Shown: positions 1,073 to 63,067, counted from the stretch's first letter. The stretch is 64,000 nucleotides of DNA from Arenicellales bacterium (GCA_963693025.1 OY843749.1:438935-502934), one strand, 5' to 3'. Notes: generated by a model from the letters alone, not told the origin. Program-made: numbers and translations.

Positions 1073-3124
1073 ATGGCGCGAAGAAGAACGCAGAAAACAC
1101 ACAAGCCAGCGAAGTCCGCCAGACCCGATAAGTCCGCCAAGCCCGGCGCAGCGCAAAGCGTTGCCATGCGCCCGGTCTCAATCGGCGCGGTCGTGGCGGT
1201 GTGCATCGCCGCGGCGGTGCCCGGCACATTCGTCGGCGCCAGCATCGGCTTCTCCGACCACTACCGCGAAGTCGCGGCGGAAGTCGGCTTTCTCGGCTTG
1301 CTGGTGTATTGGCTATACCGCAACCGCAACCTGCGCGAAATCACCCTCAACTTGAGCGGCACGCGCGGGTGGCTGGCGGGCTTGCTGGTGCTGGCGACCG
1401 CGTCGGTTTTCTGGTCGGGCGACCTCGGCTTCTTCGTCAGCAAATACTTGTTGTGGCTCGCCGCCGCCGCCGCGTTGCTGGTGACGCTGACGCTCAAACC
1501 CGACTTCGACTTGATGCTCAAACTGGCGCGCGGCTTCGCGCTAATCGCCGCGTATATCGCCGTTATCGGGCTTGTGCAGGCGTTGCTGGCGGTCGATATA
1601 TTCCTGCAAACGCATCCCCCCTCCGCCAACTTCCATAACAAAAACGCGGCCATGCAAGTTATCGTATTGGTGGCGCCGATGCTCGTCTTCGGGCTGCTGT
1701 TCGACCGCCACAAACACCTGTCAATCGTCTATTGGTTCGTGCTCGCGCTGGCGCTGGCTTATGCCTTCCACACGCGCACCCGCTCGGCGTGGCTGGCGCT
1801 GCTGCTGGAAGCGGTCATCATCATCGTCGGACTGCTCTGGCACCGCGGCTGGCTCAAGACCGCCATCCGCGAGGGGCGTGTGAATTGGGGGCGCGCGCAA
1901 CGACTCGCCGCGCCGGCGTCGGCGCTGCTGCTGGCGGTGTTGCTCAACCTCTCGGCGAGCGGCTGGGGGGGATTTGCCAACACGGTGTCGGGCGCCACGT
2001 CCAGTTTGCAGCAGGACATCGCTAGTTACTCGGAGCAGGTGTCGAAGCGGCAGTCGGAGCGCTATAAAATTTGGAGCAGCGCGCTCAAGATGATGGAGAC
2101 GCGCCCCGTGCTGGGCTCCGGCATGGGCAGTTTTTCGCGCAACCTGCTGACCGAGTCGGCGCGCTATCCGGTGTGGGCGCCGTTGCGCGTGCACAACGAC
2201 CTGCTGGAAACCGGCGTGGAGTTGGGCGCGCTCGGCCTGCTACTGTTGCTGGGCGCCGTCCTCGGCTTGCTCGGCGGCTTGCTCCGGCTACTGCGGCAAG
2301 CCGACTTCGCGGCGCGCTGCTTTTACCTGCTGGTCGCCGCCGCGCTGGGCGGCAGCGCGCTCAACATGCAATTCAGTTTCCCCTATCAAATGCCGGTGCC
2401 GCTTATCATCTTCGCCATCTACGCCGGGCTCATTCTCAAAAGCGGCGACGCCGTCAACCCGCGCATCAAAAGCCTGACCCTGACCCTGCAACGCCGCCAC
2501 TGGCTGGGCGGCCTCACCGTCGCCGGCGCCGCCTGCGCGCTGGCGCTCGCGGTCAACCTCTACTGGCTGCAAATACTCTTCACCGCCGACAGCAACCTGA
2601 CCCGCCGCGCGTGGCACGACCCGGTCAACCCCGCCCCGCCGCTATGCCACCGCGGCATCGTGCGGCTGTTCTTCCACCTCCCCTCCGCCTACCGCGAAGC
2701 CGGACGCCACCAGGAAATCCAAGGCCTGGTGAAATCCATCGAGCACTGCATCCCCGGCACCTGGCTGTCGCAACAAATCACCATCGCCGACCTGCTGCGA
2801 AAAAAACGCTGGCCCGAAGTCATCCCCCCCCTAAAACACGCCATCAACCACGCCCCCCCCGGCATCTACGTAGACCACATCAACCTGCTCGCCACCCACC
2901 TCCAACAAAACAACCTGCCGGGCGCGCTAGAAGTATACGAAAACCTAATCAACGAACCGACCGAGCGCCTGATCAAAAGAAGAGTCACACTACAAACCCT
3001 GGTCACCTTCTCGGTACAAACCAACAAACCGGAAGAAGCAAAAAAATTCTACCGGCTGCTAAATAAGCACTACAAGAAGAAGCCTGAATTTGAAGAAACG
3101 ATTCCGGGTTGGGTGCGGGAGTAG
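1073..3124 (+). CDS. O-antigen ligase (Wzy_C)/PglL-like membrane glycosyltransferase with soluble helical C-terminal extension
   Basis: Multi-TM protein with RSAWLA, R..IW..AL.M...RPVLGSGMGSF and HNDLLE..VELG motifs. Start uncertain (1073 or 1166). Confidence 0.8.
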   Translation: MARRRTQKTHKPAKSARPDKSAKPGAAQSVAMRPVSIGAVVAVCIAAAVPGTFVGASIGFSDHYREVAAEVGFLGLLVYWLYRNRNLREITLNLSGTRGWLAGLLVLATASVFWSGDLGFFVSKYLLWLAAAAALLVTLTLKPDFDLMLKLARGFALIAAYIAVIGLVQALLAVDIFLQTHPPSANFHNKNAAMQVIVLVAPMLVFGLLFDRHKHLSIVYWFVLALALAYAFHTRTRSAWLALLLEAVIIIVGLLWHRGWLKTAIREGRVNWGRAQRLAAPASALLLAVLLNLSASGWGGFANTVSGATSSLQQDIASYSEQVSKRQSERYKIWSSALKMMETRPVLGSGMGSFSRNLLTESARYPVWAPLRVHNDLLETGVELGALGLLLLLGAVLGLLGGLLRLLRQADFAARCFYLLVAAALGGSALNMQFSFPYQMPVPLIIFAIYAGLILKSGDAVNPRIKSLTLTLQRRHWLGGLTVAGAACALALAVNLYWLQILFTADSNLTRRAWHDPVNPAPPLCHRGIVRLFFHLPSAYREAGRHQEIQGLVKSIEHCIPGTWLSQQITIADLLRKKRWPEVIPPLKHAINHAPPGIYVDHINLLATHLQQNNLPGALEVYENLINEPTERLIKRRVTLQTLVTFSVQTNKPEEAKKFYRLLNKHYKKKPEFEETIPGWVRE

Positions 3125-3127
3125 TAT

Positions 3128-3367
3128 TACTCGTCATTCCTAAGTACTCGTCATTCCCTACTACTCGTCATTCTCGAGCGTTAGTGTCCGTTGCCGCCGC
3201 GCTTTTTCTTTTAAGCGGCGGCTTACGGACACTTACGACCTCGGGAATCTCCCTAAGATTGGCACGGGCTTTGTTGAAATTCACGGTAGCCTTAGGAAGA
3301 TTCCCGAAGGCGATGAAAAATATGGTCGCCTGTCGGCTCCCTATTTTTCTATCGTTCGAGAATGACG
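3128..3367. repeat. CGTC-tagged palindromic repeat dimer (arm A + arm B) with stuttered left terminus
   Basis: Terminal IRs CGTCATTCTCGA (3166) and TCGAGAATGACG (ends 3367); inner IR TCGGGAATCTCCCTAAG/CTTAGG(G/A)AGATTCCCGA; three tandem TACTCGTCATTC starts. Confidence 0.95.
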
Positions 3368-4102: not shown

Positions 4103-4220
4103 TACGGCATTGTGCCGCAAGCGGCGCGGCAATGGAACGCCTGCGCGAGGCGGCGCGCCCACGCGCATCGCCGGCACCACAGTAGCGCCTCCGGCGCGCG
4201 CCAACCAGCGGGAATCGTTG

Positions 4221-5027: not shown

Positions 5028-5035
5028 GGCGCCGC

Positions 5036-7651
<2,616 letters not shown>

Positions 7652-7730
7652 CGGTATATTTGCCGGCGCGAAAACCTTACAATAGCGCCTGCTTCCCGTC
7701 ACGAACCCCCCGTTAAAATGGAGCGTTGAA

Positions 7731-8054: not shown

Positions 8055-8086
8055 GCCCGCCAACAACCCACCCAACAAACACCCAA

Positions 8087-10741: not shown

Positions 10742-10762
10742 CCGCCGCCACCGCCACGGCGC

Positions 10763-11632
10763 TCAGCCGCCGTGGAAAATCGACATCACCATGCGGCGAA
10801 TGTGCACCGGCAGGTGTTCGTCGTAGCCGCCCCAGTCCGCGTATTTCGGCAGTTTGAGTTCGTTCTGCCAGCGCTCAATACTCGTTATCACCGCCACCGG
10901 ACCGCCGGACTGCATCGCCGCTTGCACCTCGCCCAGCACCAAGTCATACAAGTCCTGAACGAACGCAAGGTTGTCCTCCACCATCTGCACCGAAGTGCTT
11001 TCCGAATGCGAGTTGACCGCGTGTTTGAGGTTTTTGTTTTTCAATTCTTTGAGCGTGCGCAAAATCGCCAGGTAGTTGTCGTCCTCCATCCATAGCCCGT
11101 TGGTCAAGCCGCCGTCTTCATACAAGTCAGCGGTGAAGGCGATGCGCTCGTCGGGCAGGAACACCACGGTGGAGGCGAAGCCGTCGGCGGGACCGTAGTT
11201 ATGCAAGTGCAACGTCTTGCCGCCGAAATCAAGGTGCATAAAATCACCAAAAGTCACATCCACCCGCTCCGGCGCAACCCCCATAACATCCAACGCAAAC
11301 ACCGCCTCGCAACTACGATGACAAATAATCTCCGCCCCCGGAAAAACCTCGGTGCCGCCGACGTGGTCGTAGTGTTCGTGCGACAGGATGATGTGCGTCA
11401 CCGGCTTGTCGGTGATGCCGGCAATCGTGCTTTTCATCGACTCTGCATGCGAGGTGAAAGACGGGTCGAGGATTAACACGCCGTCATCGCCGACTATGAT
11501 TAAACTGGTGTAGTGGTTTTCGCTGAATAGGTATATGTCGTCGGCTAAGGTTTTAACTACTGGTGCGGCGGTTGTGGTTAATGGGATGAGGAATGCTGTG
11601 GCGATGATGAGTGGTTTTAAGTGTTTGAACAT
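10763..11632 (-). CDS. Secreted metallo-beta-lactamase-fold hydrolase
   Basis: Signal peptide-like N-terminus and SHEHYDHVGG (HxHxDH) motif. Confidence 0.8.
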   Translation of the reverse strand: MFKHLKPLIIATAFLIPLTTTAAPVVKTLADDIYLFSENHYTSLIIVGDDGVLILDPSFTSHAESMKSTIAGITDKPVTHIILSHEHYDHVGGTEVFPGAEIICHRSCEAVFALDVMGVAPERVDVTFGDFMHLDFGGKTLHLHNYGPADGFASTVVFLPDERIAFTADLYEDGGLTNGLWMEDDNYLAILRTLKELKNKNLKHAVNSHSESTSVQMVEDNLAFVQDLYDLVLGEVQAAMQSGGPVAVITSIERWQNELKLPKYADWGGYDEHLPVHIRRMVMSIFHGG

Positions 11633-11697
11633 GGTGGGTGTCCTCTGTGGTTGGTGGTTGGGGTGGGTGGGATTATACCTGAAGGTGGTGCCTACTT

Positions 11698-12185
11698 CGT
11701 CATTCTCGAGCGTTAGTGTCCGTCGCCGCCCCCCCCTACTCCGTCATTCTCGAGCGTTAGTGTCCGTTGCCGCCGCGCTTTTTCTTTTAAGCGGCGGCTT
11801 ACGGACACTTGCGTCCTCGGGAATCTCCCTAAGATTGGCACGGACTTTATTGGAATTCACGCTAGCCTTAGGGAGATTCCCGAAGGTGATGAAAAATATA
11901 GTCGCTATCGCTCCTTATTTTTCTATCATTCGAGAATGACGGTAGTTGGTTATTTTTCTACCGTCCGGGAATGACAACTACAACTCGTCATTCTCGAGCG
12001 TTAGTGTCCGTTGCCGCCGCGCTTTTTCTTTTAAGCGGCGGCTTACGGACACTTGCGTCCTCGGGAATCTCCCTAAGATTGGCACGGGCTTCGGTAAAAT
12101 CCACGGTAGACTTAGGGAGATTCCCGAGGTCGTAAGCGCCCGTAAGCCGCTACGCGGCAACGGGCGCTAACGCTCGAGAATGACG
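11698..12185. repeat. Cluster of CGTC repeats: partial arm, A+B dimer (11742-11941), A+C dimer (11986-12185)
   Basis: Same terminal and inner IRs as the 3166 copy; arm C reads GGTCGTAAGCGCCCGTAAGCCGCTACGCGGCAACGGGCGCTAACGCTCGAGAATGACG. Confidence 0.95.
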
Positions 12186-13465
12186 GGTAACTTAGCCAAC
12201 TCCTCATCCACCAAAACACAAATCTTACCCAACGCACCGCGATTCTTCTCCACCAACTCCCGACCCCGCTCAGCATATTGCCCTATGAGTACCGCATCAC
12301 CCAACAACCGCAACACCACCTCAGCCAACTCCCCGCTATCCAAAACCTGAATCCCAGCCGCATGCCGCAATACCAAGTCGGCTATTTCGGTGAAGTTGAA
12401 CATCTGCCGCCCGAACACCACCGGCACGCCCGCCGCCGATGCTTCCAACACATTGTGCCCGCCGACAGGTACAAGGCTGCCGCCGATGAAGGCTATGTCG
12501 CCGGCGGCGATTAGCATGGGTAACTCGCCCATGGTGTCGCCGATGTAGATGTCGGTGTTTGGGCTGATGGTTTGGTGTTTGACTTGCGAGCGCAGGACGG
12601 TGTGGTAGCCGCGGCGGGCGCATAGGCGGGAGACGCGTTTGAAGCGTTGTGGGTGGCGTGGCACGATGACGAGTAGCAGCGACTTGTGCTGCGCGCGGAC
12701 TTGCGCGAATGCGTCCAGTATTTGCGACTCCTCGCCTTCGTGCGTGCTGCCGGCGACCCACACCGGGCGCTCGCGTCCCCATTGGTTGCGCAGCGACTGC
12801 GCCGCTTCGCGCTCGCCGGCGCCGGCGCTCAGCGCGACATCAAACTTGATGCTGCCGGTGACGGTGAGCGCCGACGCCGGCGCGCCGAGTCGCATCAACC
12901 GCTTGGCGTCGAAGCGCGTCTGCACCGCGAAGCGGTCGATTTTTTTTAGCGTGGGTTTGATGAGCGCTTTGAGGCGGTGATAGCCGCGATGCGAGCGCCG
13001 CGACAAGCGCACGTTGACATAGACCAGCGGCACGCCGAGTCGGTGGCAGCGGGCGATGAGGTTGGGCCAGATTTCGGTTTCCATCACCAACGCAAGGCGC
13101 GGCGAGACGGCGCCGAGAAAGCGCTTGACCGCACCGGGATAATCATACGGCAGATAGCAGTGCCGCACGCGCCCGGCGAAAGTCGCGGCGACTCGGTCGG
13201 CGCCGGTCGGCGTCATCGTGGTGACGGTGACCGGTTGATGCGGATAGGTCGCTAACAAATGCTCCACCAACGGCGCGGCGGCGTTGACCTCGCCGACCGA
13301 CACCGCGTGAATCCAAACCCCGCCGCTCGGCGGACGCTTGCCGACGAAGCCCAGCCGCTCAGAGACGCGCTCGAAGTAACGACGGTCGCGCAACGCGCGC
13401 GCCAGCAAGCGCAACATCACCAGCGGGAACGCCAGATACAACGCAATGCGATATAAAGTCAGCAA
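12167..13465 (-). CDS. waaA: 3-deoxy-D-manno-octulosonic acid (Kdo) transferase
   Basis: WIHAVSVGEV, METEIWPN, GSTHEGEE, VPRHPQRF, GDTMGEL, GGHNVLE. The stop codon lies inside a repeat arm. Confidence 0.95.
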   Translation of the reverse strand: MLTLYRIALYLAFPLVMLRLLARALRDRRYFERVSERLGFVGKRPPSGGVWIHAVSVGEVNAAAPLVEHLLATYPHQPVTVTTMTPTGADRVAATFAGRVRHCYLPYDYPGAVKRFLGAVSPRLALVMETEIWPNLIARCHRLGVPLVYVNVRLSRRSHRGYHRLKALIKPTLKKIDRFAVQTRFDAKRLMRLGAPASALTVTGSIKFDVALSAGAGEREAAQSLRNQWGRERPVWVAGSTHEGEESQILDAFAQVRAQHKSLLLVIVPRHPQRFKRVSRLCARRGYHTVLRSQVKHQTISPNTDIYIGDTMGELPMLIAAGDIAFIGGSLVPVGGHNVLEASAAGVPVVFGRQMFNFTEIADLVLRHAAGIQVLDSGELAEVVLRLLGDAVLIGQYAERGRELVEKNRGALGKICVLVDEELAKLPVILER

Positions 13466-15045: not shown

Positions 15046-15557
15046 TCTGTGTTGGTAGTCAGAGACTTCTGCAAAGCATCATCCGCGGCGATGACCGCCT
15101 TGGCGTTCTCCTCCCGCCCGGCACGCACCCGCGCCGCCAAGCCATCATCGGCAAGCGCCAAAATCTGCGCCGCCAAATGCCCCGCATTCTTCGCACCCGC
15201 TTTCCCAATCGCCACACAAGCCACCGGCACCCCACCGGGCATCTGCACCGTGGAAAGCAACGCATCCCGCCCATTCAAAGGTCCCCCATCCATCGGCACA
15301 CCAATCACCGGCCGCACCGTCAACGCCGCCACCGCCCCCGCCAAATGCGCCGCCAACCCCGCCCCCGCCACAAACACCCCACACCCTCGTTGCTCTGCGT
15401 CGACGACGTATTGCCGGGTTGCTTCGGGGGTTCTATGTGCTGATGCGATTCGGGCTTCGAATGGGACTTTTAGTTGTTTGAGCACTGCGAAGGTTGCTTG
15501 CATTGTTGGGAGGTCGGATTCTGAGCCCATTAGGACTGCTACGAATGGTTTGTTCAT
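15042..15557 (-). CDS. purE: N5-CAIR mutase PurE
   Basis: MNKPFVAVLMGSESD, SAHRTP, AGLAAHLAG, STVQMPGGVPVA. Confidence 0.95.
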   Translation of the reverse strand: MNKPFVAVLMGSESDLPTMQATFAVLKQLKVPFEARIASAHRTPEATRQYVVDAEQRGCGVFVAGAGLAAHLAGAVAALTVRPVIGVPMDGGPLNGRDALLSTVQMPGGVPVACVAIGKAGAKNAGHLAAQILALADDGLAARVRAGREENAKAVIAADDALQKSLTTNTD

Positions 15558-15626
15558 TGGTTGGTGGGTGGTGGGTGTGGGGGGTAAGGGTAGCGAAATT
15601 GGGGTGGGGGGGCAAGGGTGATAACG

Positions 15627-16021
15627 CGTCATTCTCGAGCGTTAGTGTCCGTTTGCCGCCGCGCTTCTTCTTGCGGCGGCTTACGGACACTTGCGTCCTC
15701 GGGAATCTCCCTAAGGTTGGCACGGACTTGAACAAAGCGAGCGAAGCGGGCGGCGGGTAAGCCGCCGGTTTTTTGGTTTTTTGGATGGGGGCTTCGGTAA
15801 AGTCCACGCTAGTCTTAGAGAGATTCCCAAGGTCGTAAGCGCCCGTAAGCCGCTACGCGGCAACGGGCGCTAACGCTCGAGAGTGACGGAGTTGGGGGTT
15901 TTTGGTTGGGGGCTTTGTTGGAATTCACGGTAGGCTTAGGGAGATTCCCGAGGTCGTAAGTGTCCGGTAAGCCGCCGCTTAAAAGAAAAAGCGCGGCGGC
16001 AACGGACACTAACGCTCGAGA
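15627..16021. repeat. CGTC repeat cluster (A+C dimer 15627-15888, then an inverted arm A interrupted by IS110)
   Basis: Same IRs; the last arm breaks at CTCGAGA (16021) and resumes as ATGACG at 17233. Confidence 0.93.
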
Positions 16022-16037
16022 GTATCTGTGTTAAAAA

Positions 16038-16988
16038 TCAAGCGATATTTGCCGCCGCCGGCGTGTAGTTTTTCAGCCATGGGGTGCCGCGTTTGGCGAC
16101 TGCGTTTAGTTGGGTTAGCAGTTTTCGCATGACTGCCACTTGCGCCACTTTGGGCGGTTTGCCGCGGGCGCGTAGGCGCTCGTAAAACGCCTTCATCTCG
16201 GGGTTATAACGGCACGCCGACACCGCTCCCATGTAAAACGCGCAGCGCGGCTGCGCCCGACCGCCGCGGATGCTGCGCTTGGCGCGCATGGTGCCGCTGT
16301 CGCGCGCATACGGCGCCACGCCCATCAGCGCCGCAATCCGCCGATCGCTCACTTGCCCCAACTCCGGCAAATACGCCAGCAGGGTCATCGCAATCACTTC
16401 GCCGACACCGGTGACACTCTGATACAACGCCGCGCGCTCAGCCAACTCCGGCGCCGAACGCACGCACTCGCGGCAGGCTTTACTCACTGCTTCAATCTCC
16501 TCATCCAGCCACGCCAGATGCCGAAGGCACGATGCCTCAACGACCTCATCCGGACGCTTCTCCAGCCGGTTCTTCTCCTGCACTCGCTGCTTCACCAACT
16601 GCTCGCGACGCCTCATCAAGTCGCTCAACGCTTGACTCTCCGCGCTGCGCGCCGGCGTCGGCGGCAACTTCATCAGCGTCGCAAACTCAGCCAGCGTCCG
16701 CGCATCCAACTTGTCGGTCTTCGCCAACCGACCGCACGATTTCGCGTAGTCTTTGGCTCGCACCGGATGCACCACTTTCACCGGCATCCGCGCCGCATGC
16801 AGCGCGCGCACCAGATGGCGCTCATAACTGGACGCATCGCAAGCCACCTGCTCCACCGCGTTGTCGCGCAACCAAACCAACAGCGCCGGAAAGCCAGCAT
16901 CATCGTTGCTAAACTGCTGCGAGAAACCACCCGGCAACCACACATCCAAATACGCTTTGCCCACATCAATACCCGCAAACTTCTTCAT
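16038..16988 (-). CDS. IS110-family bridge recombinase (RuvC-like DEDD domain + Tnp20 domain)
   Basis: GIDVGK, KTDKLDA, GVG...A, RDSG, GKPPKVAQVAVMRKLL; AGGAGG RBS upstream of ATG 16988. Confidence 0.95.
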   Translation of the reverse strand: MKKFAGIDVGKAYLDVWLPGGFSQQFSNDDAGFPALLVWLRDNAVEQVACDASSYERHLVRALHAARMPVKVVHPVRAKDYAKSCGRLAKTDKLDARTLAEFATLMKLPPTPARSAESQALSDLMRRREQLVKQRVQEKNRLEKRPDEVVEASCLRHLAWLDEEIEAVSKACRECVRSAPELAERAALYQSVTGVGEVIAMTLLAYLPELGQVSDRRIAALMGVAPYARDSGTMRAKRSIRGGRAQPRCAFYMGAVSACRYNPEMKAFYERLRARGKPPKVAQVAVMRKLLTQLNAVAKRGTPWLKNYTPAAANIA

Positions 16989-17040
16989 CAAAGCACCTCC
17001 TAACAAAAGCAACAAAAGGGTTAAAATGAGTTAACATCAG

Positions 17041-17217
17041 CGCTGTTTCCGCACACTTATATACGGGGCATTATCCCCAAGCATCTGTTCGCGGCAACAA
17101 CGGCGCGAGGGGTCCGTACTCTCGAACGCTGCAGCAGGAATCAATGACACCTGCCCAGCACATGACAAACCGGTTCACCCCTCGCGCCCACCCTCTACTC
17201 TGGCCTGAATAGGGGGT
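17041..17217 (-). ncRNA. Predicted bridge RNA of IS110 copy 1
   Basis: 5' hairpin (17191-17216); target loop closed by GGCGCGAGGGG/CCCCUCGCGCC with guides UUUGUCAU and UCGAGAG; donor loop with ACAGAUGCU and AUAUAAG. Ends approximate. Confidence 0.85.
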
Positions 17218-17345
17218 AAACTGAACATATAAATGACGAAGTTGTTGTTGTGAATGACGAAGTTGGGGGGTGGCGGGGTTGGGGGAATGACGGGGAGGGT
17301 GGTAGAATAACCAACCACCAAAATAACCAGCCCCAAACCATCCCC

Positions 17346-17686: not shown

Positions 17687-18148
17687 TCGTCATTCGAGCG
17701 TTAGTGTCCCCCGACTTCGTCATTCTCGAGCGTTAGTGTCCGCCGCCGCCGCCACAACAACAACAACAACTTCGTCATTCTCGAGCGTTAGTGTCCGTTA
17801 GTCGCCGCGCTTTTTCTTTTAAGCGGCGGGTTACGGACCACTTGCGTCCTCGGGAATCTCCCTAAGGTTGGCACGGATTCAAACGGAGTGAGCGAAGCGG
17901 GCGGCGGGTAAGCCGCCGGTCTTTTGGGTGGGGGGCTTTGTTGGAATTCGCGGTAGGGTTAGGGAGATTCCCGAGGTCGTAAGCGCCCGTAAGCCGCTAC
18001 GCGGCAACGGGCGCTAACGCTCGAGAATGACGGGGTTGGGGGTTTTTTGGGTGGGGGTTTTGTTGGAGTTCGCGGTAGTCTTAGGGAGATTCCCGAGGTC
18101 GTAAGCGCCCGTAAGCCGCTATGCGGCAACGGGCGCTAACGCTCGAGA
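17687..18148. repeat. CGTC repeat cluster (two stuttered partial arms, A+C dimer, second arm C interrupted by IS110)
   Basis: CGTCATT starts at ~17688, 17718 and 17773; dimer ends at 18032; next arm breaks at 18148. Confidence 0.93.
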
Positions 18149-18164
18149 GTATCTGTGTTAAAAA

Positions 18165-19115
18165 TCAAGCGATATTTACCGCCGCCGGCGTGTAGTTTTT
18201 CAGCCATGGGGTGCCGCGTTTGGCGACTGCGTTTAGTTGGGTTAGCAGTTTTCGCATGACTGCCACTTGCGCCACTTTGGGCGGTTTGCCGCGGGCGCGT
18301 AGGCGCTCGTAAAACGCCTTCATCTCGGGGTTATAACGGCACGCCGACACCGCTCCCATGTAAAACGCGCAGCGCGGCTGCGCCCGACCGCCACGGATGC
18401 TGCGCTTGCCGCGCATTTTGCCGCTGTCGCGCGTATACGGCGCCACGCCCATCAGCGCCGCAATCCGCCGATCGCTCACTTGCCCCAACTCCGGCAAATA
18501 CGCCAGCAGGGTCATCGCAATCACTTCGCCGACACCGGTGACACTCTGATACAACGCCGCGCGCTCAGCCAACTCCGGCGCCGAACGCACGCACTCGCGG
18601 CAGGCTTTACTCACTGCTTCAATCTCCTCATCCAGCCACGCCAGATGCCGAAGGCACGATGCCTCAACGACCTCATCCGGACGCTTCTCCAGCCGGTTCT
18701 TCTCCTGCACTCGCTGCTTCACCAACTGCTCGCGACGCCTCATCAAGTCGCTCAACGCTTGACTCTCCGCGCTGCGCGCCGGCGTCGGCGGCAACTTCAT
18801 CAGCGTCGCAAACTCAGCCAGCGTCCGCGCATCCAACTGGTCGGTCTTCGCCAACCGACCGCACGATTTCGCGTAGTCTTTGGCTCGCACCGGATGCACC
18901 ACTTTCACCGGCATCCGCGCCGCATGCAGCGCGCGCACCAGATGGCGCTCATAACTGGACGCATCGCAAGCCACCTGCTCCACCGCGTTGTCGCGCAACC
19001 AAACCAACAGCGCCGGAAAGCCAGCATCATCGTTGCTAAACTGCTGCGAGAAACCACCCGGCAACCACACATCCAAATACGCTTTGCCCACATCAATACC
19101 CGCAAACTTCTTCAT
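18165..19115 (-). CDS. IS110-family bridge recombinase, copy 2
   Basis: Nearly identical to copy 1 (differences K>Q, A>T, T>K, A>G, A>V). Confidence 0.95.
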   Translation of the reverse strand: MKKFAGIDVGKAYLDVWLPGGFSQQFSNDDAGFPALLVWLRDNAVEQVACDASSYERHLVRALHAARMPVKVVHPVRAKDYAKSCGRLAKTDQLDARTLAEFATLMKLPPTPARSAESQALSDLMRRREQLVKQRVQEKNRLEKRPDEVVEASCLRHLAWLDEEIEAVSKACRECVRSAPELAERAALYQSVTGVGEVIAMTLLAYLPELGQVSDRRIAALMGVAPYTRDSGKMRGKRSIRGGRAQPRCAFYMGAVSACRYNPEMKAFYERLRARGKPPKVAQVAVMRKLLTQLNAVAKRGTPWLKNYTPAAVNIA

Positions 19116-19167
19116 CAAAGCACCTCCTAACAAAAGCAACAAAAGGGTTAAAATGAGTTAACATCAG

Positions 19168-19344
19168 CGCTGTTTCCGCACACTTATATACGGGGCATTA
19201 TCCCCAAGCATCTGTTCGCGGCAACAACGGCGCGAGGGGTCCGTACTCTCGAACGCTGCAGCAGGAATCAATGACACCTGCCCAGCACATGACAAACCGG
19301 TTCACCCCTCGCGCCCACCCTCTACTCTGGCCTGAATAGGGGGT
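19168..19344 (-). ncRNA. Predicted bridge RNA of IS110 copy 2
   Basis: Sequence identical by eye to 17041-17217. Confidence 0.85.
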
Positions 19345-19359
19345 AAACTGAACATATAA

Positions 19360-19567
19360 ATGACGAAGTTGTGGGGGTGGCACGGACTTGAACAAAGTGG
19401 GCGAAGCGGGTGGCGGGTAAGGCGCCGGTTTTTTGGGTTTTTTGGGTGGGGGCTTCGGTAAAGTCCACGGTAGTCTTAGGGAGATTCCCGAGGTCGTAAG
19501 TGTCCGGTAAGCCGCCGCTTAAAAGAAGAAGCGCGGCGGCAACGGACACTAACGCTCGAGAATGACG
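19360..19567. repeat. CGTC repeat (remainder of the interrupted terminus, spacer and inverted arm A)
   Basis: CTTAGGGAGATTCCCGAGG...CTAACGCTCGAGAATGACG ending at 19567. Confidence 0.9.
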
Positions 19568-19573
19568 GGGTTG

Positions 19574-27460: not shown

Positions 27461-27511
27461 TATGCTTGTCTCTGGTTGGGTTCGTCAATAGGGTGGGGGG
27501 GCAAAAAGCCT

Positions 27512-27706
27512 GTCATTCTCGAACGGTAGAAAATAGGGAGCCGATAGGCGACCATATTTTCTTCGATTCGGGAATCTCCCTAAGGCTAGCGTGGACTTTG
27601 GCGAAGACCGTGCCAATCTTAGGGAGATTCCCGAGGTCGTAAGTGTCCGTAAGCCGCCGCAAGAAGAAGCGCGGCGGCAAACGGTCACTAACGCTCGAGA
27701 ATGACG
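27512..27706. repeat. CGTC repeat dimer (arm B + inverted arm A)
   Basis: GTCATTCTCGAACGGTAGAAAATAGGGAGCCG ... ACGCTCGAGAATGACG. Confidence 0.93.
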
Positions 27707-27717
27707 AGTTGTGGCCG

Positions 27718-30200: not shown

Positions 30201-30384
30201 TGGGTGGTTTCCGTGAGTGTTGAGGGGGTGATTTTACCTGATTTGCGGCAAAAACAAGGGGATTTCGTGTACGTCCTTGCCGAACGGCGAAAATATACAT
30301 CATCGGAAGGCGGGTTGGCAAGGGTGGTGGAGGGGGGAATCGGGTGTTGTGTAGTCCCAACGCCGCCGACTCCGTCATTCCCCC

Positions 30385-31056
30385 CTACCCCCCCCGAACC
30401 TCCCTCAACCGCCCCTTCGTCCCAACATCCACCCACCGCCCACCATAAACCTCACCACTAACCCGCCGACCAACAATCCCCCGCCGAATAACCGAAACCA
30501 AAGGAAACCGCTCCGCCGCAAACCCATCAAACGCCCGGCGGCGAAAGCAGCCTATGCCGGCATAAGTCCAACTCGGCAACTCGCCCAACACAACCCCGCC
30601 ATCCACCAACCCAAAATCCCCTTCAGGATTATGCGGCGGGTTTTCCACCAGCACCAAATGCATATCGCAACCCGCCCCCACCCGCAGCCCGGCGAAGTCA
30701 AAGTCACAAAAAACATCCCCATTGATTACGATAAACGGCTCACTCAACAACCCCAACGCATTCACAACCCCGCCGCCCGTCTCCAACGCACCGTCCGGCT
30801 CTTCGGAATAACGCACGCGCAACCCGAACCGTTTGCCGTCTCCGAGGTGGTCGCGGATTTGTTCGCCTAGCCATGCGAGGTTGATGACGACTTCGGTGAA
30901 GCCTTGCGTTGCCAGCCGGTCTAGGTGGTGTTCCAGCAGGGTTTTTTTGCCTACTTGGAGTAGGGTTTTGGGGGTGGAGTCGGTTAGGGGGCGGAGGCGG
31001 TTTCCGCGTCCGGCGGCTAGGATTAAGGCGGTTGGCATTTTGATAGTACTCGTCAT
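30385..31056 (-). CDS. murU: N-acetylmuramate alpha-1-phosphate uridylyltransferase MurU
   Basis: ALILAAGRGNRLRPLTDSTPK, ALETGGG, LVLVENPPHNPEGDF, WVDVGT. Start is 31056 (inside the repeat) or 31038. Confidence 0.85.
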   Translation of the reverse strand: MTSTIKMPTALILAAGRGNRLRPLTDSTPKTLLQVGKKTLLEHHLDRLATQGFTEVVINLAWLGEQIRDHLGDGKRFGLRVRYSEEPDGALETGGGVVNALGLLSEPFIVINGDVFCDFDFAGLRVGAGCDMHLVLVENPPHNPEGDFGLVDGGVVLGELPSWTYAGIGCFRRRAFDGFAAERFPLVSVIRRGIVGRRVSGEVYGGRWVDVGTKGRLREVRGG

Positions 31057-31160
31057 TCTCGAGCGTTAGTGTCCGTTGTCGCCGCGCTTTTTCTTTTAAG
31101 CGGCGGCTTACCGGACACTTGCGTCCTCGGGAATCTCCCTAAGGTTGGCACGGACTTCAC
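31051..31160. repeat. Single CGTC repeat arm A between murU and lipB
   Basis: CGTCATTCTCGAGCGTTAG...TCGGGAATCTCCCTAAGGTTGGCACGG. Confidence 0.92.
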
Positions 31161-31762
31161 CCAAACCCAACCCCCAACCCTTCAGCCAAAACCCCCTCAA
31201 CCTCCTCAACCTCCACATCAACAAACTCACTCATCTTCGTAACCCGCAACCCCGCAAACCCACACGGGTCAATCAACCCATACGGCGTCAAGTCCATATC
31301 CACATTCAAACTCAACCCATGAAAACAACACCCCCGCCTGATACGCAACCCAAGCGCCGCGATTTTTGCGCCGCGCACATAGACGCCGGGCGCGCCGGGG
31401 TGGCGGGTGGCGGGTAAGTCGTAGGTGGCTAGCAGGTCGATGACGACTTGCTCGATTTGTTTCACCACCGACTTGACCCCGAGCCCGCGGCGTTTGATGT
31501 CTAGTAGCAGGTAGGCGACCAGTTGACCGGGTCCATGATAGGTAATCTGCCCGCCGCGGTCGGTGTGGATGACGGGGATGGCGCCGGCGCGGGGGGTGGT
31601 GTGGCAGTTGGTTCCTTGCGTGAAGACCGGGGGGTGTTGGAGTAGCCAGATTTGGTCGGCGGTGGTGGGGGTGCGGGTGTGGGTGAAGTGTTGCATGCGC
31701 TGCCAGATGGGGTGGTAGTCGCGGAGGCCTAGGTGGTGGATGGTTGGTTGCAATTTCGTCAT
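31157..31762 (-). CDS. lipB: Octanoyltransferase LipB
   Basis: HPPVFTQG, DRGGQITYHGPGQLVAY, KIAALGLR, FHGLSLNV, IDPCG. Confidence 0.95.
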   Translation of the reverse strand: MTKLQPTIHHLGLRDYHPIWQRMQHFTHTRTPTTADQIWLLQHPPVFTQGTNCHTTPRAGAIPVIHTDRGGQITYHGPGQLVAYLLLDIKRRGLGVKSVVKQIEQVVIDLLATYDLPATRHPGAPGVYVRGAKIAALGLRIRRGCCFHGLSLNVDMDLTPYGLIDPCGFAGLRVTKMSEFVDVEVEEVEGVLAEGLGVGFG

Positions 31763-32083
31763 TCTCGAGCGTTAGCGCCCGTTGCCGCGTAGCGGCTTAC
31801 GGGCGCTTACGACCTCGGGAATCTCCATAAGGTTGGCACGGACTTGAACAAAGCGGGCGAAGCAGGCGGCGGGTAAGCCGCCATTCTCGCAGTCTTTTGA
31901 GTGGGGATGACGGCTTTGTTTGGGCTCAGCGCTAGTCTTAGGGAGATTCCCGAGGACGCAAGTGTCCGTAAGCCGCCGCTTAAAAGAAAAAGCGCGGCGG
32001 CAACGGTCACTAACGCTCGAGAATGACGAAGTTGGGGCCAACGGACACTAACGCTCGAGAATGACGAAGTAGTGAGAATGACG
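31757..32083. repeat. CGTC repeat dimer (arm C + inverted arm A) with stuttered right terminus
   Basis: Dimer ends at 32028; extra GAGAATGACG termini at ~32066 and 32083. Confidence 0.93.
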
Positions 32084-32090
32084 GGTAATG

Positions 32091-33263
32091 TCAAAACCCC
32101 AAAACAAAAACCATCCGCCGAAAATAATCCACCACCCTCGACCACCACTCCCCCGCCGCGTAATCCTCAGCCGGATACAACGGCATCACCCGCACAACCT
32201 CTCCGTCAAATTTTATCTCAGCCTTCCCAACCTCGTCATCAACCGACAACGGCGCGTCCAAACTATGTGGCAACTTAATCTCGCCCGACAACTTCCCCTT
32301 GCCCCCCTTAGGATACAAAATCCCCAGCGCATCATTAATCTTAACCCGCGCTTCACGCTCAAGCCCCATCCATAGCGGCAACACATCGACTTCTTTACCC
32401 GCCGGATACACCAACACGCTTTCGTAATTTGCATAACCATATTGCAGCAGAGCATAAACCTGGTCGGCGCGGATTTTGGCGCTTTGGGAGCCTATTACGG
32501 TGGCGATTAGGCGCATGCCGTTGCGGTTGGCGGTGCCGATTAGGCAGTAGCCGGCTTTGCGGGTGTAGCCGGTTTTGATGCCGTCTACGCTGGGGTCGCG
32601 CGCTAGTAGCAGGTTGCGGTTTTGTTGGGTGATGCCGTTGTAGGTGAATTCTTTTTCGGAATAGATTCGGTAGTGGTCGGGGAAGCGGCGGATGAGCGCG
32701 AGGGTGAGGATGCTCATGTCGCGCGCGCTGCTGTAATGCTCCGGGTGCGGCAAGCCGCTGCTGTTGACGAAGTTCGTGTTGCGCATGCCGAGTTGCGCCG
32801 CGGTGTGATTCATCTGCGCCGCAAACCCCGCCTCCGAGCCGCCGAGATGCTCCGCCAACGCCACCGCCGCATCGTTGCCCGACTGCACGATTAACCCGCG
32901 CAGCAAGTCCGCCACGCTGACCCGAGTATCCACCCGAATAAACATCCTCGACCCGCCGGTCTGCCACGCCTTCTTGCTGACATAAACGAGGTCGTCCAAC
33001 GCAATCGCGTTGCGCGAAAGCGCATCAAAGACGAGATAGCCGGTCATCAATTTAGTCAAACTAGCCGGCTCAATCCGCGCGTCGGCGTTAACGCTGTCAA
33101 TAACCCAACCGCTCTCGAAGTCTGCCAGCAGCCAGGCGTTGACCGGCATTTCCGGGACGGGCATGCGGGATTTTAGGGGGACGGGGAGTGGGGCGAGTAG
33201 TGGCTCGGCTAGGGCCGAGGTGGCGCAGAGTAAGAGCGCGATTAGGAAGGTGGGCTTTGGCAT
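32091..33263 (-). CDS. D-alanyl-D-alanine carboxypeptidase (PBP5/6, DacA/DacC family)
   Basis: PASLTKLM (SxxK), SGNDA (SxN), KTG motif. Confidence 0.93.
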   Translation of the reverse strand: MPKPTFLIALLLCATSALAEPLLAPLPVPLKSRMPVPEMPVNAWLLADFESGWVIDSVNADARIEPASLTKLMTGYLVFDALSRNAIALDDLVYVSKKAWQTGGSRMFIRVDTRVSVADLLRGLIVQSGNDAAVALAEHLGGSEAGFAAQMNHTAAQLGMRNTNFVNSSGLPHPEHYSSARDMSILTLALIRRFPDHYRIYSEKEFTYNGITQQNRNLLLARDPSVDGIKTGYTRKAGYCLIGTANRNGMRLIATVIGSQSAKIRADQVYALLQYGYANYESVLVYPAGKEVDVLPLWMGLEREARVKINDALGILYPKGGKGKLSGEIKLPHSLDAPLSVDDEVGKAEIKFDGEVVRVMPLYPAEDYAAGEWWSRVVDYFRRMVFVLGF

Positions 33264-33326: not shown

Positions 33327-33526
33327 CGTCATTCTCGAACGGTAGAAAATAGGGAGCCGACAGGCGACCATATTTTCTTCGATTCGGGAATCTCCCTAAG
33401 TCTACCGTGAATTCCAACAAAGACTGTGCCAGTCTTAGGGAGATTCCCGAGGTCGTAAGTGTCCGTAAGCCGCCGCTTAAAAGAAAAAGCGCGGCGGCAA
33501 ACGGTCACTAACGCTCGAGAATGACG
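33327..33526. repeat. CGTC repeat dimer (arm B + inverted arm A)
   Basis: Nearly identical to 27512-27706. Confidence 0.93.
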
Positions 33527-33587
33527 GGGTGGGGGTTTTTTTGGGGGTGGTCGCCACTCCCGCCCCCGCCCCCGTATAATCACTCCC

Positions 33588-39188: not shown

Positions 39189-39470
39189 CGTCATTCTCGA
39201 GCGTTAGTGTCCGTTTGCCGCCGCGCTTTTTCTTTTAAGCGGCGGCTTACGGACACTTACGTCCTCGGGAATCTCCCTAAGGTTGGCACGGGCTTTGTTG
39301 AAATTCACGGTAGCCTTAGGGAGATTCCCGAAGGCGATGAAAAATCCGCCCGGAGCGGATTTTCGCGTAGCCCGAAGGGTTTGTATCAGGGATGATACAA
39401 ACAAAAATATGGTCGCTGACGCTCCCTATTTTTCTATCGTTCGAGAATGACGGCTTTGTTGTGAATGACG
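39189..39470. repeat. CGTC repeat dimer (arm A + arm B carrying a ~60-bp insertion)
   Basis: Termini at 39189 and 39452, extra GAATGACG at ~39470; preceded by a (CAACAY)n microsatellite at ~39136-39177. Confidence 0.93.
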
Positions 39471-59772: not shown

Positions 59773-61175
59773 CAACCCCTTACAACACCGCCGAACTGCG
59801 CGACCTTGACCGTAAGCATCACTTTCATCCGTTCACCAATCACCGCCGCATGCATGCCGGCGGGGCGCGTATTATTTGTGGGGCTGAGGGGGTTTATGTT
59901 TATGATTCGGATGGCAAGCAATATCTTGACGCGATGTCGGGGTTGTGGTGTGTCAATATTGGTTATGGGCGGCGCGAACTTGCCACGGTCGCGGCGGAGC
60001 AGATGGAGCGGTTGCCCTATTACAACAGTTTTTTTCAGACCGCGCAGGTGCCGGCGGTGGAGTTGGCGCACGCGCTCGCCGAGGTGACGCCGGCGCAGTA
60101 TAAGCGGGTGTTTTTTGGTTGCACCGGCTCGGATGCGAACGACACCATCGTGCGTTTGGCGCGATACTACTGGCAACTGCGCGGGCGCGCCGAGCGTCAA
60201 ATCATTATCAGCCGGCACAACGCCTACCACGGCAGCACCCTCGCCGGCGCGAGTCTCGGCGGGATGAATGCGATGCATGCGCAGGGCGGTTTGCCGATTC
60301 CCGGCATCGAGCATATCGAGCAGCCCTATTACTTTGGGCGCGGGGGCGATGATGAAGCATTGTCCGAGGCCGATTTTGGCATTCACGCGGCGCGCGCGCT
60401 GGAGAATAAAATCGTGGCGCTCGGCGCGGACAAGGTGGCGGCGTTCATCGGCGAGCCGATTCAGGGCGCCGGCGGCGTCATCATTCCGCCGCACACCTAC
60501 TGGCCCGAAATCCAACGCATCTGCAAAAAATACGACATCCTGCTCATCGTCGACGAGGTCATCTGCGGCTTCGGTCGCACCGGCAACTGGTTCGGCTCGG
60601 ACACCTTCGCCATCGAAGGCGATTTGATGACCCTCGCCAAGGGTTTGTCGTCCGGCTACCAGCCCATCAGCGCGGTGATGGTGGCGGACAAAATCGCCGA
60701 CGCGCTCGATGAACACGACGACGAGTTCAGCCACGGCTACACCTATTCGGGGCATCCGGTCGCCTGCGCGGTCGCCTTGAAAAACATCGAGATACTGCGA
60801 CGCGAACGCATCATAGAAAACGCCCGCGCGCACAGTATGGACTACCTGCAAACGCGCCTGCAAACCCTCGCCGCGCATCCCCTGGTCGGCGAGGTGCGGG
60901 TCGAGGGTTTCGTCGGCGCGATTGAGTTGGTCGCGGACAAAACAACCCGTCAACGCTTCGACACCAACGGCACCGCCGGCACACTATGCCGCGAAGCCTG
61001 TTTTGACAACGGCCTGGTAATGCGCGCGGTTGGCGACACGATGGTATTTTCTCCGCCGCTTGTTATTAGTCATGCTGAGATCGATGAGTTTGTTGAAAAG
61101 GCGGGGGGGAGTTTGGAGGTGGTTGGGCGGGTAATCTCGTCATTCTCGAATGATAGAAAAATAGGGAGCCGGTAG
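59769..61175 (+). CDS. Class III (omega) aminotransferase, SpuC-like
   Basis: DAMSGLWCVNIGYGR, AYHGST, GEPIQGAGG, DEVICGFGRTG, LAKG. The stop codon lies inside a repeat arm. Confidence 0.9.
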   Translation: MTTPYNTAELRDLDRKHHFHPFTNHRRMHAGGARIICGAEGVYVYDSDGKQYLDAMSGLWCVNIGYGRRELATVAAEQMERLPYYNSFFQTAQVPAVELAHALAEVTPAQYKRVFFGCTGSDANDTIVRLARYYWQLRGRAERQIIISRHNAYHGSTLAGASLGGMNAMHAQGGLPIPGIEHIEQPYYFGRGGDDEALSEADFGIHAARALENKIVALGADKVAAFIGEPIQGAGGVIIPPHTYWPEIQRICKKYDILLIVDEVICGFGRTGNWFGSDTFAIEGDLMTLAKGLSSGYQPISAVMVADKIADALDEHDDEFSHGYTYSGHPVACAVALKNIEILRRERIIENARAHSMDYLQTRLQTLAAHPLVGEVRVEGFVGAIELVADKTTRQRFDTNGTAGTLCREACFDNGLVMRAVGDTMVFSPPLVISHAEIDEFVEKAGGSLEVVGRVISSFSNDRKIGSR

Positions 61176-61359
61176 GCGACCATATTTTTCATCACCTTCG
61201 GGAATCTCCCTAAGGTTACCGTGGACTTTGGCGAAGCCCTTGCCAATCTTAGGGAGATTCCCGAGGACGCAAGTGTCCGGTAAGCCGCCGCTTAAAAAGA
61301 AAAAGCGCGGCGGCAACGGACACTAACGCTCGAGAATGACGACGTAATGGAGAATGACG
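61138..61359. repeat. CGTC repeat dimer (arm B + inverted arm A) with stuttered end
   Basis: Termini at 61138 and 61341; extra AGAATGACG at 61351-61359. Confidence 0.93.
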
Positions 61360-61465
61360 AAGCATAAAAAAATCACCCAATTTGTGACATTTCCCACAAC
61401 TTTTTTACGGAACCCTCACTACCCTGCGCCTAATTTCACAAGCGGGCTTTGCAGGGAGCACGGAT

Positions 61466-63049
61466 ATGTCAGGAACACGGAAACAAGTGGGAAACGAGCA
61501 CGGTTCACCACACAGAAAGGCGCATCGGCGGGCGGTTATTGGCGTTTGCTTCAGTCACGTTAGCAATAACGCAAAGCGCGCATTGTTGCATCTTTGCCTG
61601 GTTTTATTGCTGCTTCCAACCCCTTCCCTTGCCATCACCGAAGCGCAGTTTATCGACAAGGTGTTGGCGCAGGACAAACTGTTGGAAGAGGCGCAAATCG
61701 GGCTTGACATTAAGCGCATTGAGCGCGATGCGAGCCGTGATAATTATGTCAACTGGAAAGCCAATTTGTCGTGGGATGTGGGTTATCGTTACCGCGATTT
61801 GGACCGGGACATCTACACCACTTACGACTACACCAGTCAGACTCGGGACTACCCGAAGACGGTCGGGGTGGCTGTTGAAAAACGGTTTCTGTCGCACCCC
61901 GGCAGTCTGCGAATGGGCATTAGCCGGAGCAAAGACAAAGGCACGGAAGAGCGCAACGACTCGCCCACGAAATCTCAGCGGGAAAGAAACATCGATGACC
62001 GAACCACTTATCACCACGTCAAAGAATACAAAACCCGGCACTACATTCAGTTCAACTATCCGCTGCTCAAACACGACACCAACGCCCTCTCGCTCAAAAC
62101 CCACCGCCGCGATATCGTTGACCTCAAGCGGCAACAGTTGTCGTTTTATGAAACCAAAGAGGACTTCCTCGACGCGCGGCTGAGCGACTATTTGTCGTGG
62201 ATGCGTTATCAGCGCCGGGTGATTATCAACCGGGAGTTGCTGGATAAACTGCGGCGGCTGCATCCCGACGGCGAGGCTGAAACCGCGCTGCTTAAAAGCA
62301 CGGTTTATCAAATAGAAAGATACCAGTCGGACGCCGGCATTCAGTTGCAGGCGATTAAGGAGAAACTGTCGGTGCTGCTCGACGACGCGGCGATTTTAAC
62401 CGAGACGCCGGAATACGAGTTGCACAAACGCATTGACTTTATTCGCGGAGATTTGCCGGACTATCTGACAACGCACAACCGCGAGTTGCAGCGCATCGCT
62501 TTGAGTATGGAGTTAAACAAAATTGAAATCGCCCACTATAAAAATCAAAACCTGCCGGAGTTGGATTTGATACTGCGCGCCGAGGAAAACTCAAACCAGG
62601 GGCATACGCGCACTTCCAAAATCAATGACGACCGGACAAACTATACCGCCACGCTGGAATTCAGTTATCCGTTGGGCGGCAACATTGCCAACAAGGCGAA
62701 CCTGAAAAAATTCCAGTTGGGGGTGCGCCGGTTGGAAATCAGTTATCAGGAGGAATTGCAAGACATCGTCGCCGACATTCAACGCTTGCACACGCTGCTG
62801 ACGCTGGACGAAGCGCAACTCCTAGAAGCCATCAACGCGGCGGCGCAGAGTGCGCGGATTGAGTTTGAAAACTATCAGTCGGGGGAGACTTCGTTTCGGG
62901 ATTTGTTGCAAGCCTTTCAGGATGAGCGCACGGCTAAATTGAATCATATTGATAATGTGATTGATTATCAACTTAATAGTATTGATTATGATAATTTGCT
63001 TGATAGGATTATTGAGACGCCTTGTGGGGTTGGGTTGTCTGGGTGTTGA
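61466..63049 (+). CDS. TolC-family outer membrane efflux-like protein
   Basis: Signal-like segment, helical and beta alternation, LPELDL...LEFSYPLG and YQSG..SFRDLL motifs. Start uncertain. Confidence 0.65.
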   Translation: MSGTRKQVGNEHGSPHRKAHRRAVIGVCFSHVSNNAKRALLHLCLVLLLLPTPSLAITEAQFIDKVLAQDKLLEEAQIGLDIKRIERDASRDNYVNWKANLSWDVGYRYRDLDRDIYTTYDYTSQTRDYPKTVGVAVEKRFLSHPGSLRMGISRSKDKGTEERNDSPTKSQRERNIDDRTTYHHVKEYKTRHYIQFNYPLLKHDTNALSLKTHRRDIVDLKRQQLSFYETKEDFLDARLSDYLSWMRYQRRVIINRELLDKLRRLHPDGEAETALLKSTVYQIERYQSDAGIQLQAIKEKLSVLLDDAAILTETPEYELHKRIDFIRGDLPDYLTTHNRELQRIALSMELNKIEIAHYKNQNLPELDLILRAEENSNQGHTRTSKINDDRTNYTATLEFSYPLGGNIANKANLKKFQLGVRRLEISYQEELQDIVADIQRLHTLLTLDEAQLLEAINAAAQSARIEFENYQSGETSFRDLLQAFQDERTAKLNHIDNVIDYQLNSIDYDNLLDRIIETPCGVGLSGC

Positions 63050-63067
63050 TTTTGATGGGGTGTTGAG

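Follow-up and report, generated by a model that had tools for sequence, protein, structure and literature searches.

The window analysed here is a 64,000-nucleotide (nt) stretch of the genome of an Arenicellales bacterium (GCA_963693025.1, OY843749.1:438935-502934). It contains loci of a short repeat, a hairpin headed by the tetranucleotide CGTC, and the DNA on either side of these loci carries a halo in which G/T-rich and C/A-rich zones follow one another. We are highly confident that this halo is real and linked to the repeat. Our tentative explanation, to which we give a probability of roughly 0.48, is that the halos are local, strand-specific substitution footprints, produced when an SsnA-like nuclease encoded in the window cuts the exposed CGTC strand and the DNA is resynthesised in an error-prone manner.

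The window occupies positions 438935-502934 of the single 3.15-Mb contig (C1; 60.2% GC) that makes up this genome, here called G000. Gene calling by a hexamer script gave 2,180 genes and misses some starts that are short or skewed. We identified 1,139 matches to the CGTC head and 886 to the tail of the repeat, which merge into 465 loci, 464 of them outside called genes. Each unit consists of an unpaired CGTC tag and a hairpin of 70-90 nt, of which there are two main types; DNA folding leaves the CGTC unpaired. The predominant form of a locus is an inverted dimer with both heads outward (exactly so at 97 of the 465), and 567 of the 661 outward heads belong to loci with both orientations. With an unpaired tag followed by a palindrome, intergenic placement and frequent dimers, the repeats belong to the class of CGTC-tagged repetitive extragenic palindromes (REPs; Di Nocera et al., 2013, PMC3733652). 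They also resemble the NTS/SRM motif, as enlarged Ssn-type hairpins.

Composition is expressed as keto skew, (G+T-A-C)/N, with K for G or T and M for A or C, and the inward strand is the one that reads 5' to 3' toward the repeat locus. The original prediction, made from the window's sequence, had listed example intervals of alternating composition around the repeats, and 12 of the 12 carry the sign claimed, with magnitudes of 0.33-0.56 (Table 1). Among 18,316 background windows of 200 nt lying >1.5 kb from repeats, only 0.2% exceed an absolute skew of 0.4. A genome-wide profile at four-fold sites of the inward strand (745 locus sides, bootstrap over loci) shows the distance dependence that the prediction had expected, G/T near the repeat and then C/A, fading by about 800 nt. 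Skew is +0.84 (0.77 to 0.92) at 10-30 nt, crosses zero near 120 nt (+0.03 at 110-130 nt), reaches -0.36 (-0.39 to -0.31) at 200-250 nt, and declines to -0.11 at 500-600 nt and -0.005 at 800-1000 nt, staying within 0.03 of zero beyond 800 nt. The halo is indifferent to gene orientation, as had been claimed, the sign on the inward strand being equal for genes that end at the repeat and genes that start from it. No dependence on chromosome position or replichore was seen, and G000 has no chromosome-wide or replichore-scale GC skew. Such skew is likewise absent from every genome that we examined (G000 as a whole, and stretches of its relatives G002, G004, G005 and G008), the repeat-free G005 included. 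Two dif-like matches lie on opposite strands near 229.4 kb in G000.

The halo is common and not universal: a far zone below -0.2 occurs on 57% of 639 sides, compared with 13% of 2,421 control positions, and values below zero on 80% and 50%, respectively. The median distance of the flip is about 140 nt (interquartile range 97-216; 432 strong sides of 807), and some locus sides have no near zone. Coding sequences are affected in the way foreseen: the LipB N-terminus, the TrmJ C-terminus and the end of the adhesin are rich in H/T/Q/P/N, and the C-termini of LipB and MurU in V/G/E. Zoning had also been claimed for the GIY-YIG gene, where we find it (-0.27 then +0.39), and for the IS110 body, where it is weak. 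Conserved residues are changed at 13.9% of near-zone positions (124/892, a figure that includes gene-end effects), 10.8% of far-zone positions (734/6,770) and 9.4% of background positions (3,419/36,378). An assembly artefact is rejected, as contigs from other samples carry the same halos base for base; one of them shows no differences over 31182-31784 and two over 32054-33320.

The pattern had been described as its own reverse complement. This symmetry is not a property of the unit: the halo of a single unit is directional, and the strand symmetry arises because inverted dimers superimpose two directional patterns back to back. At 53 single-orientation loci, with the far zone taken as 250-600 nt, skew is -0.26 (-0.32 to -0.19; 50 sides) on the head side and -0.02 (-0.14 to +0.10; 25 sides) on the tail side (paired Wilcoxon p=0.0006, n=22; permutation p=0.0004). 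Both sides have a near zone, of +0.25 next to the head and +0.66 next to the tail, the latter from only 16 sides. Taken separately by gene orientation, tail sides give far-zone values of +0.05 in one class (17 sides) and -0.20 in the other (9 sides, the interval spanning zero), so the contrast between head and tail is clearest for genes ending at the repeat. The relative G008 shows the same head/tail direction, and G004 does so more weakly, with few tail-only sides. Along the CGTC strand, one unit thus carries C/A between about -700 and -130, G/T between about -110 and -10, the hairpin, and C/A for about 130 nt past the tail. Something must read the orientation of CGTC, because the unit's two strands fold about equally (-28.8 and -26.2 kcal/mol).

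Orthologues at loci without the repeat show that the halo tracks each lineage's own repeat positions. In a reciprocal test on orthologous codons, using 400 kb of each relative, near- and far-zone skews at loci with a repeat in G000 only are +0.41/-0.31 in G000 (n=458/2,857) and -0.01/-0.03 in repeat-free G005, and at loci with a repeat in G008 only they are +0.20/-0.26 in G008 (n=55/533) and -0.05/-0.04 in G000. Synteny with the relatives examined is fragmented, with 47-60 blocks per 400 kb. Nor is the same skew present at all gene ends irrespective of repeats. In G000, convergent gene ends show +0.33/-0.21 with a repeat and only +0.07/-0.10 without, the far zone at divergent gene starts is -0.18 with a repeat and -0.03 without, and skew at operon-internal boundaries is near zero. 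The weak repeat-free signal may represent scars, or ghosts, of lost repeats. There are 99 strong switches >1.5 kb from repeats, of which 71% fall at gene boundaries (18% at random). Repeat-free switches occur at C1:63960, 570180, 1856680, 3066480 and other positions of G000, some keeping a head stub. Far from repeats, third-position skew has a standard deviation of about 0.19 per 300 nt, its variance being about twice the binomial expectation.

In all codon families the strand that gains G/T does so by C to T, C to G and A to G, with no clear neighbour context and no evident dinucleotide, methylation or deaminase context. Four-fold changes were polarised with agreeing orthologues. On the G/T-gaining strand, C>T rises from 0.036 in the background to 0.15 in the far zone (n=751 C sites) and 0.22 in the near zone (n=87), and C>G from 0.165 to 0.26 and 0.30, respectively. 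An equilibrium model with two components, in which one spectrum acts strongly over a short distance on the inward strand and more weakly, with an e-fold of about 180 nt, on the outward strand, reproduces all four base frequencies in all zones when the spectrum includes A>G, C>T and C>G (deviance 138 on about 58 degrees of freedom). Fits are poorer without C>G (461), without A>G (864) and with C>T only (1,316). The fitted ratios are A>G 1.8, C>T 1 and C>G 0.5, values that rest on an assumed background matrix. A mirror-image excess of C>N and A>N is present around the repeat. Copying by fold-back between near and far zones is rejected, as reverse-complement words show no excess (6-mers, 8,879 versus 9,074; 8-mers, 888 versus 975; 10-mers, 102 versus 97).

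Two comparisons suggest that the mutation rate is raised near repeats. The tuf copy that lies beside the tail of a unit differs from the other copy at 16 sites in the adjoining 123 nt and at 16 in the remaining 1,070 nt; with the repeat-free copy assumed to be ancestral, 11 of the tail-side changes are G/T to C/A on the plus strand as predicted, 1 is opposite and 4 are within class. A second haplotype, found in three runs, differs (among the variants listed, 40 of 81) at 12 of 204 positions in 31170-31373, 15 of 228 in 32136-32363 and 3 of 575 in the middle of dacA. Scans of metagenomes gave no matches and then single matches, probably by chance.

A candidate for the agent that reads CGTC is encoded in the window. 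The 97-amino-acid product of this gene has PF01541 as its only domain, with Y9, Y20 and E67 spaced exactly as Y6, Y17 and E64 of N. meningitidis SsnA (Chenal et al., 2025, PMC11893778), and the gene is bracketed by CGTC-headed hairpin motifs that abound in the genome. From these sequence features we predict an SsnA-like protein that would cut CGTC hairpins. Neisseria SsnA cuts single-stranded DNA (ssDNA) a few nt 5' of CGTC and spares the reverse strand, and its role in vivo is to cut transforming DNA (PMC11893778). A second ssn-like gene at C1:3106588, 60% identical, lies in an array of repeat variants (C1:3105300-3107300) resembling the G004 type, which suggests that it was acquired separately. 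The 11 congeners divide into six repeat-rich genomes, with 78-745 head matches, and five repeat-poor ones, with 3-13. Five of the former and none of the latter yielded a close ssn homologue, although these genomes are kin and not independent. SbcD was not found in any of 12 genomes of the genus, and hairpin cleavage by SbcCD is rejected on that ground. G000 encodes DinB, MutS and MutL, along with ComEC and DprA; no match to MutH was found in G000, and NucS/EndoMS is discarded for want of a match in this 96.5% complete genome. For RecBCD, no RecB above the cut-off was found in G000, where open frames of 1,154 and 750 amino acids match weakly; these are probably AddA-like and UvrD-like, respectively.

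We propose that the CGTC strand would become exposed as lagging-strand template or as displaced strand, and that the SsnA-like nuclease, which needs ssDNA, would cut it, while single-stranded, just 5' of the hairpin. The opposite nascent strand would stall at the foot of the hairpin's tail and be remade through the gap 5' of the hairpin, giving the tail zone and the long far zone; the zones would bracket the hairpin, with the long one 5' of CGTC, because of this stall. The 3' end of the cut strand would be trimmed and resynthesised over about 100 nt, giving the near zone. Homologous-recombination repair outside the replisome, possibly with Pol I or Pol IV and weak mismatch correction, could leave errors of the replication type. 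In mismatch-repair-defective E. coli, A>G and C>T are strand-biased in the pattern of uncorrected replication errors (10.1101/346874), and the SOS response increases strand-biased G:C to C:G changes (10.1101/2020.01.15.908301). Of the causes put forward in the original prediction, a repeat-anchored mutational process by nicking and biased resynthesis is thus the best-supported option, given the strength at silent sites, the tracking of lineage-specific repeat positions, the orientation of CGTC and the GIY-YIG gene in the window; the cutting and the error-prone repair are its presumed parts. The lack of matches to SbcD and MutH and the presence of DinB also count in its favour.

Several observations weigh against this proposal. 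The spectrum fit is imperfect and its rate ratios depend on the background matrix, and the tail-side near zone comes from few sides. The strength of the halo is independent of unit type, of whether the tail is intact, of the 10-nt sequence where the cut is expected and of the number of units, and left and right sides are scarcely correlated. Divergence between strains is patchy (47/2,020 far from repeats in one contig; 0/603 and 1/526 inside halos elsewhere), and pooled paralogue pairs give 22:13 in the near zone and 53:57 in the far zone, that is, no direction in the latter. The halo is also lineage-restricted. In G008 (94 sides, 800 kb) the far zone is clear, -0.41 at 150-200 nt, and the near zone weak; in G004 (138 sides in 800 kb, half of which was selected around repeats) hairpins are long, the halo is weak and the near zone is missing. 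We found no halo in G002 (44 sides, 211 pattern matches), in G099 of the same class (113 sides, 218 matches) or in 272 pooled sides from the best 80 of 381 confirmed distant ssn loci, where with a loose pattern all bins lie within 0.04. Nuclease and repeats are therefore not sufficient for a halo. Genes for mutS, mutL, dinB and dprA do not separate lineages with and without halos, and DinB and MutL, being genus-wide, give no account of the restriction.

The main rival, which we consider rather unlikely, is biased gene conversion. The nuclease would cut incoming transforming ssDNA at the CGTC head, donor ends would pile up at the repeats, and end-directed mismatch repair would remove the well-recognised donor G/T alleles and pass C/A on the CGTC strand, a bias in the fixation of existing variation and not new mutation. 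On this account both flanks of a single unit should turn C/A on the CGTC strand, which matches the far and tail zones, and the account accords with the presence of ComEC and DprA, with MutS and MutL occurring without MutH, with strains that are a mosaic of identical and divergent blocks, and with the role shown for SsnA in vivo. Of 19 recombination tracts mapped in Neisseria, 13 terminate close to dRS3 arrays (Bentley et al., 2007, PMC1797815), and the skews of the elements known as GRINS accompany gene conversion (Nivina et al., 2021, PMC8256042). However, the G/T near zone demands a second process, and neither the 6-7% haplotype divergence in some halos nor the dense tuf cluster is directly predicted. 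By the specificity of mismatch repair, the bias of C:C versus G:G should be strongest, yet transitions dominate the fit.

Damage to ssDNA around the cuts, in which deamination and lesion bypass would deplete the exposed strand of C and A, is improbable. It would suit the 4-6 fold rise of C>T, the largest of the changes, and the two uracil-DNA glycosylase family genes of G000, and strand asymmetry of C>N and A>N flanks the breaks at human meiotic hotspots (Hinch et al., 2023, PMC7615360). The polarity of the far zone, however, is opposite to that of a resected 3' tail, and neither a TC nor a CG context is evident. Spontaneous deamination is not known to yield A>G at a rate equal to or above that of C>T, which is what the fit calls for (the ratio of 1.8 being model-dependent).

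We regard as quite improbable that no nuclease is involved and that long hairpins simply stall replication, the halo coming from error-prone filling of the gaps. Halos do accompany long units (about 70-90 nt in G000 and G008) and are missing from G002 and G099, whose observed units are mainly short, and the presence of ssn alone does not predict a halo; yet the far zone lies only on the CGTC head side of strands that fold almost equally, chromosome position has no influence, and G004 combines long hairpins with a weak halo. Selection on RNA or ssDNA, for Rho loading (rut) sites or structure-free flanks at the ends of transcription units with merely co-located repeats, is highly improbable: repeats are over-represented in the gaps between convergent genes (141 of 465 loci, versus 188 of 1,351 gaps >40 nt), and repeat-free convergent ends and boundary switches carry some signal, but the skew is far stronger with a repeat at convergent ends and divergent starts, is near zero within operons and absent from the orthologous ends of G005, the flip shifts little with the intergenic gap (median 122 to 178 nt), some repeat-free switches retain head stubs, and the halos do not follow transcript 3' ends and the coding strand independently of repeats as a rut signal would. 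The original prediction had offered structure-free flanks as its second option, which finds no support in view of the indifference to gene orientation and the raised substitution.

Table 1. Repeat loci, halos and associated genes of the window (positions from its first nucleotide; keto skew of the plus strand in brackets).
Feature	Position	Strand	Remarks
Repeat locus, inverted dimer, heads outward	3162..3367	.	Far zone present in flanks, near zone slight
Left halo, metallo-beta-lactamase-fold gene	11230..11690	+	C/A 11230-11350 (-0.49); G/T 11500-11690 (+0.47)
Repeat locus, extra head and two dimers	11698..12190	.	
Right halo, kdtA 3' end	12190..12700	+	C/A 12190-12380 (-0.46); G/T 12540-12700 (+0.33)
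Left halo across purE	15130..15620	+	C/A 15130-15390 (-0.43); G/T 15410-15620 (+0.45)
Repeat locus, dimer and third unit, its head split by IS110	15624..16023	.	
IS110 copy within repeat head	16021..17235	-	NF033542; weak zoning (+0.12, -0.22)
SsnA-like single-domain GIY-YIG nuclease, 97 amino acids	17346..17639	+	PF01541, E=1.8e-13; CGTC heads or stubs on both sides; predicted hairpin cutter
Repeat locus downstream of nuclease gene	17718..18150	.	
Second IS110 copy, same site of a repeat head	18148..19362	-	
Single-orientation unit, head toward adhesin gene end	19375..19569	-	Far C/A zone on coding strand
Repeat locus, dimer	27511..27709	.	
Halo across murU	30380..31045	+	C/A 30380-30840 (-0.45); G/T 30850-31045 (+0.36)
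Single-orientation unit (monomer)	31047..31168	+	
Halo across lipB, between two loci	31160..31750	+	C/A 31160-31360 (-0.56); G/T 31400-31750 (+0.34)
Repeat locus, dimer and extra head	31757..32066	.	
Halo, dacA 3' part	32090..32720	+	C/A 32090-32460 (-0.35); G/T 32480-32720 (+0.35)
Repeat locus, dimer	33327..33528	.	
Repeat locus, dimer	39189..39452	.	Near zone missing on both sides
Repeat locus, dimer	61138..61341	.	
Repeat locus, three units	63066..63383	.	

Immediately 5' of CGTC heads (e.g., window 17680-17775) there are short duplicated head stubs separated by variable C/A-rich linkers, and at intergenic positions -1 to -12 before heads G makes up only 7%; stubs and linkers may be scars of cut-site repair. 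The IS110 family has 11 copies in the genome, 97-100% identical, plus two distant ones, and uses one fixed site in the repeat head, so that insertion parts the CGTC tag from its hairpin. As a record of mutation these copies were uninformative, the 47 variable sites in the 11 copies being too few and too shared to polarise. Another multicopy element, of 1.62 kb, occurs at C1:258676-260297 and in 4 further copies, 4 of the 5 lying inside the second hairpin type. The window also encodes a full-length mutS (5087-7651), with a halo-like switch at its 3' end (genome position about 446260) even though it is >1.5 kb from a repeat. At 19574-27460 there is a gene of 2,600 codons with repeats of about 115 residues and a barrel-like C-terminus, which we take to be adhesin-like. 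A cluster of small genes at 27904-30200 has 27-nt tandem repeats, a common upstream sequence and one weak CCDC90-like match.

If nuclease and hairpin do act together, they may constitute a protein-addressed, directional local mutator or converter, an anchored form of the process behind GRINS that would leave ghost halos after repeat loss. We hold this wider view to be doubtful; it would give the system about 465 addresses whose nearest 700 nt cover some 23% of the genome and touch an end of 672 of the 2,180 called genes. Through a probably non-adaptive process, the repeats change the codons used by core genes and the termini of their proteins, a point relevant to the reading of dN/dS, codon bias and higher divergence in genes beside such repeats. 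The footprint, averaged over hundreds of sites, may yield the lengths of resection and resynthesis tracts in an uncultured bacterium.

Among known systems, CGTC-tagged REPs (PMC3733652) and the dRS3/NIME repeats of Neisseria (PMC1797815) share the repeat class and the dimer organisation. The higher divergence of genes next to dRS3 arrays was ascribed to recombination with foreign DNA (PMC1797815); the word "skew" occurs 0 times in the main texts of either paper. Strand-asymmetric mutagenesis around programmed breaks (PMC7615360), with the break-associated hotspots of E. coli (Shee et al., 2012, PMC3607216), resembles the halos in having a sequence-addressed break and a zoned footprint, with C>T, C>G and A>G on one strand mirrored on the other. 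There the scale is 2 kb to 60 kb and the outcome is an excess of mutations (PMC7615360, PMC3607216), whereas here the footprint spans 100-700 nt, with a change of sign inside each flank, and composition is driven near fixation. The far zones also have the polarity of a replication origin, C/A to the left and G/T to the right. Replication-associated GC and keto skew involves the same base classes, but the halos extend <800 nt with no long-range gradient and do not persist to a next terminus as origin-type skew does.

The Ssn system with its NTS/SRM motif shares a small GIY-YIG gene beside CGTC-headed hairpins in hundreds of copies, and a cut that is confined to one strand and falls 5' of CGTC (PMC11893778), where the far zone is also found here. 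The hairpins described here are 70-90 nt long and mostly in outward-facing dimers, whereas Ssn hairpins are 28 nt, and we found restriction of transforming DNA, and no flanking skew, described for the Ssn system (PMC11893778). The halos suggest that the widespread Ssn nucleases have a role beyond restricting transformation.

The closest compositional match is to GRINS, which have intense, correlated GC and TA skews with abrupt intragenic switches, strongest at third positions, and proteins pushed toward G/V/C/W or P/T/H/Q; error-prone G/T misinsertion was proposed as their source (PMC8256042). The 8,866 halo windows show skew of this type (mean |GC| 0.161, |TA| 0.199, r=0.61), compared with 0.099, 0.150 and r=0.25 in unique windows far from repeats. 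GRINS, however, are duplicated coding regions of >500 bp without a known anchor (PMC8256042), whereas the halo windows counted are unique sequence without duplication (>500 bp, >80% identity), and the halos lie in single-copy genes with a short-repeat anchor, a fixed polarity and decay with distance. G000 also has giant open reading frames, one of 26,189 codons (C1:314595-393161) and several of 4,000-15,000, with internal duplications in which GC and TA skews are correlated (r=0.58), modest in size and somewhat GRINS-like. That nothing like the halo had been described was thus true only in part: we found no account of skew halos around REP or Ssn repeats in our searches of the open-access literature, but the compositional signature is published as GRINS (PMC8256042). 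Beyond that signature, the analysis adds the orientation dependence, the reciprocal orthologue result and the fit of a single spectrum. GRINS-type skew is here linked to one defined kind of site, with a polarity and a candidate enzyme, and its cause can therefore be tested with one small gene and one hairpin.

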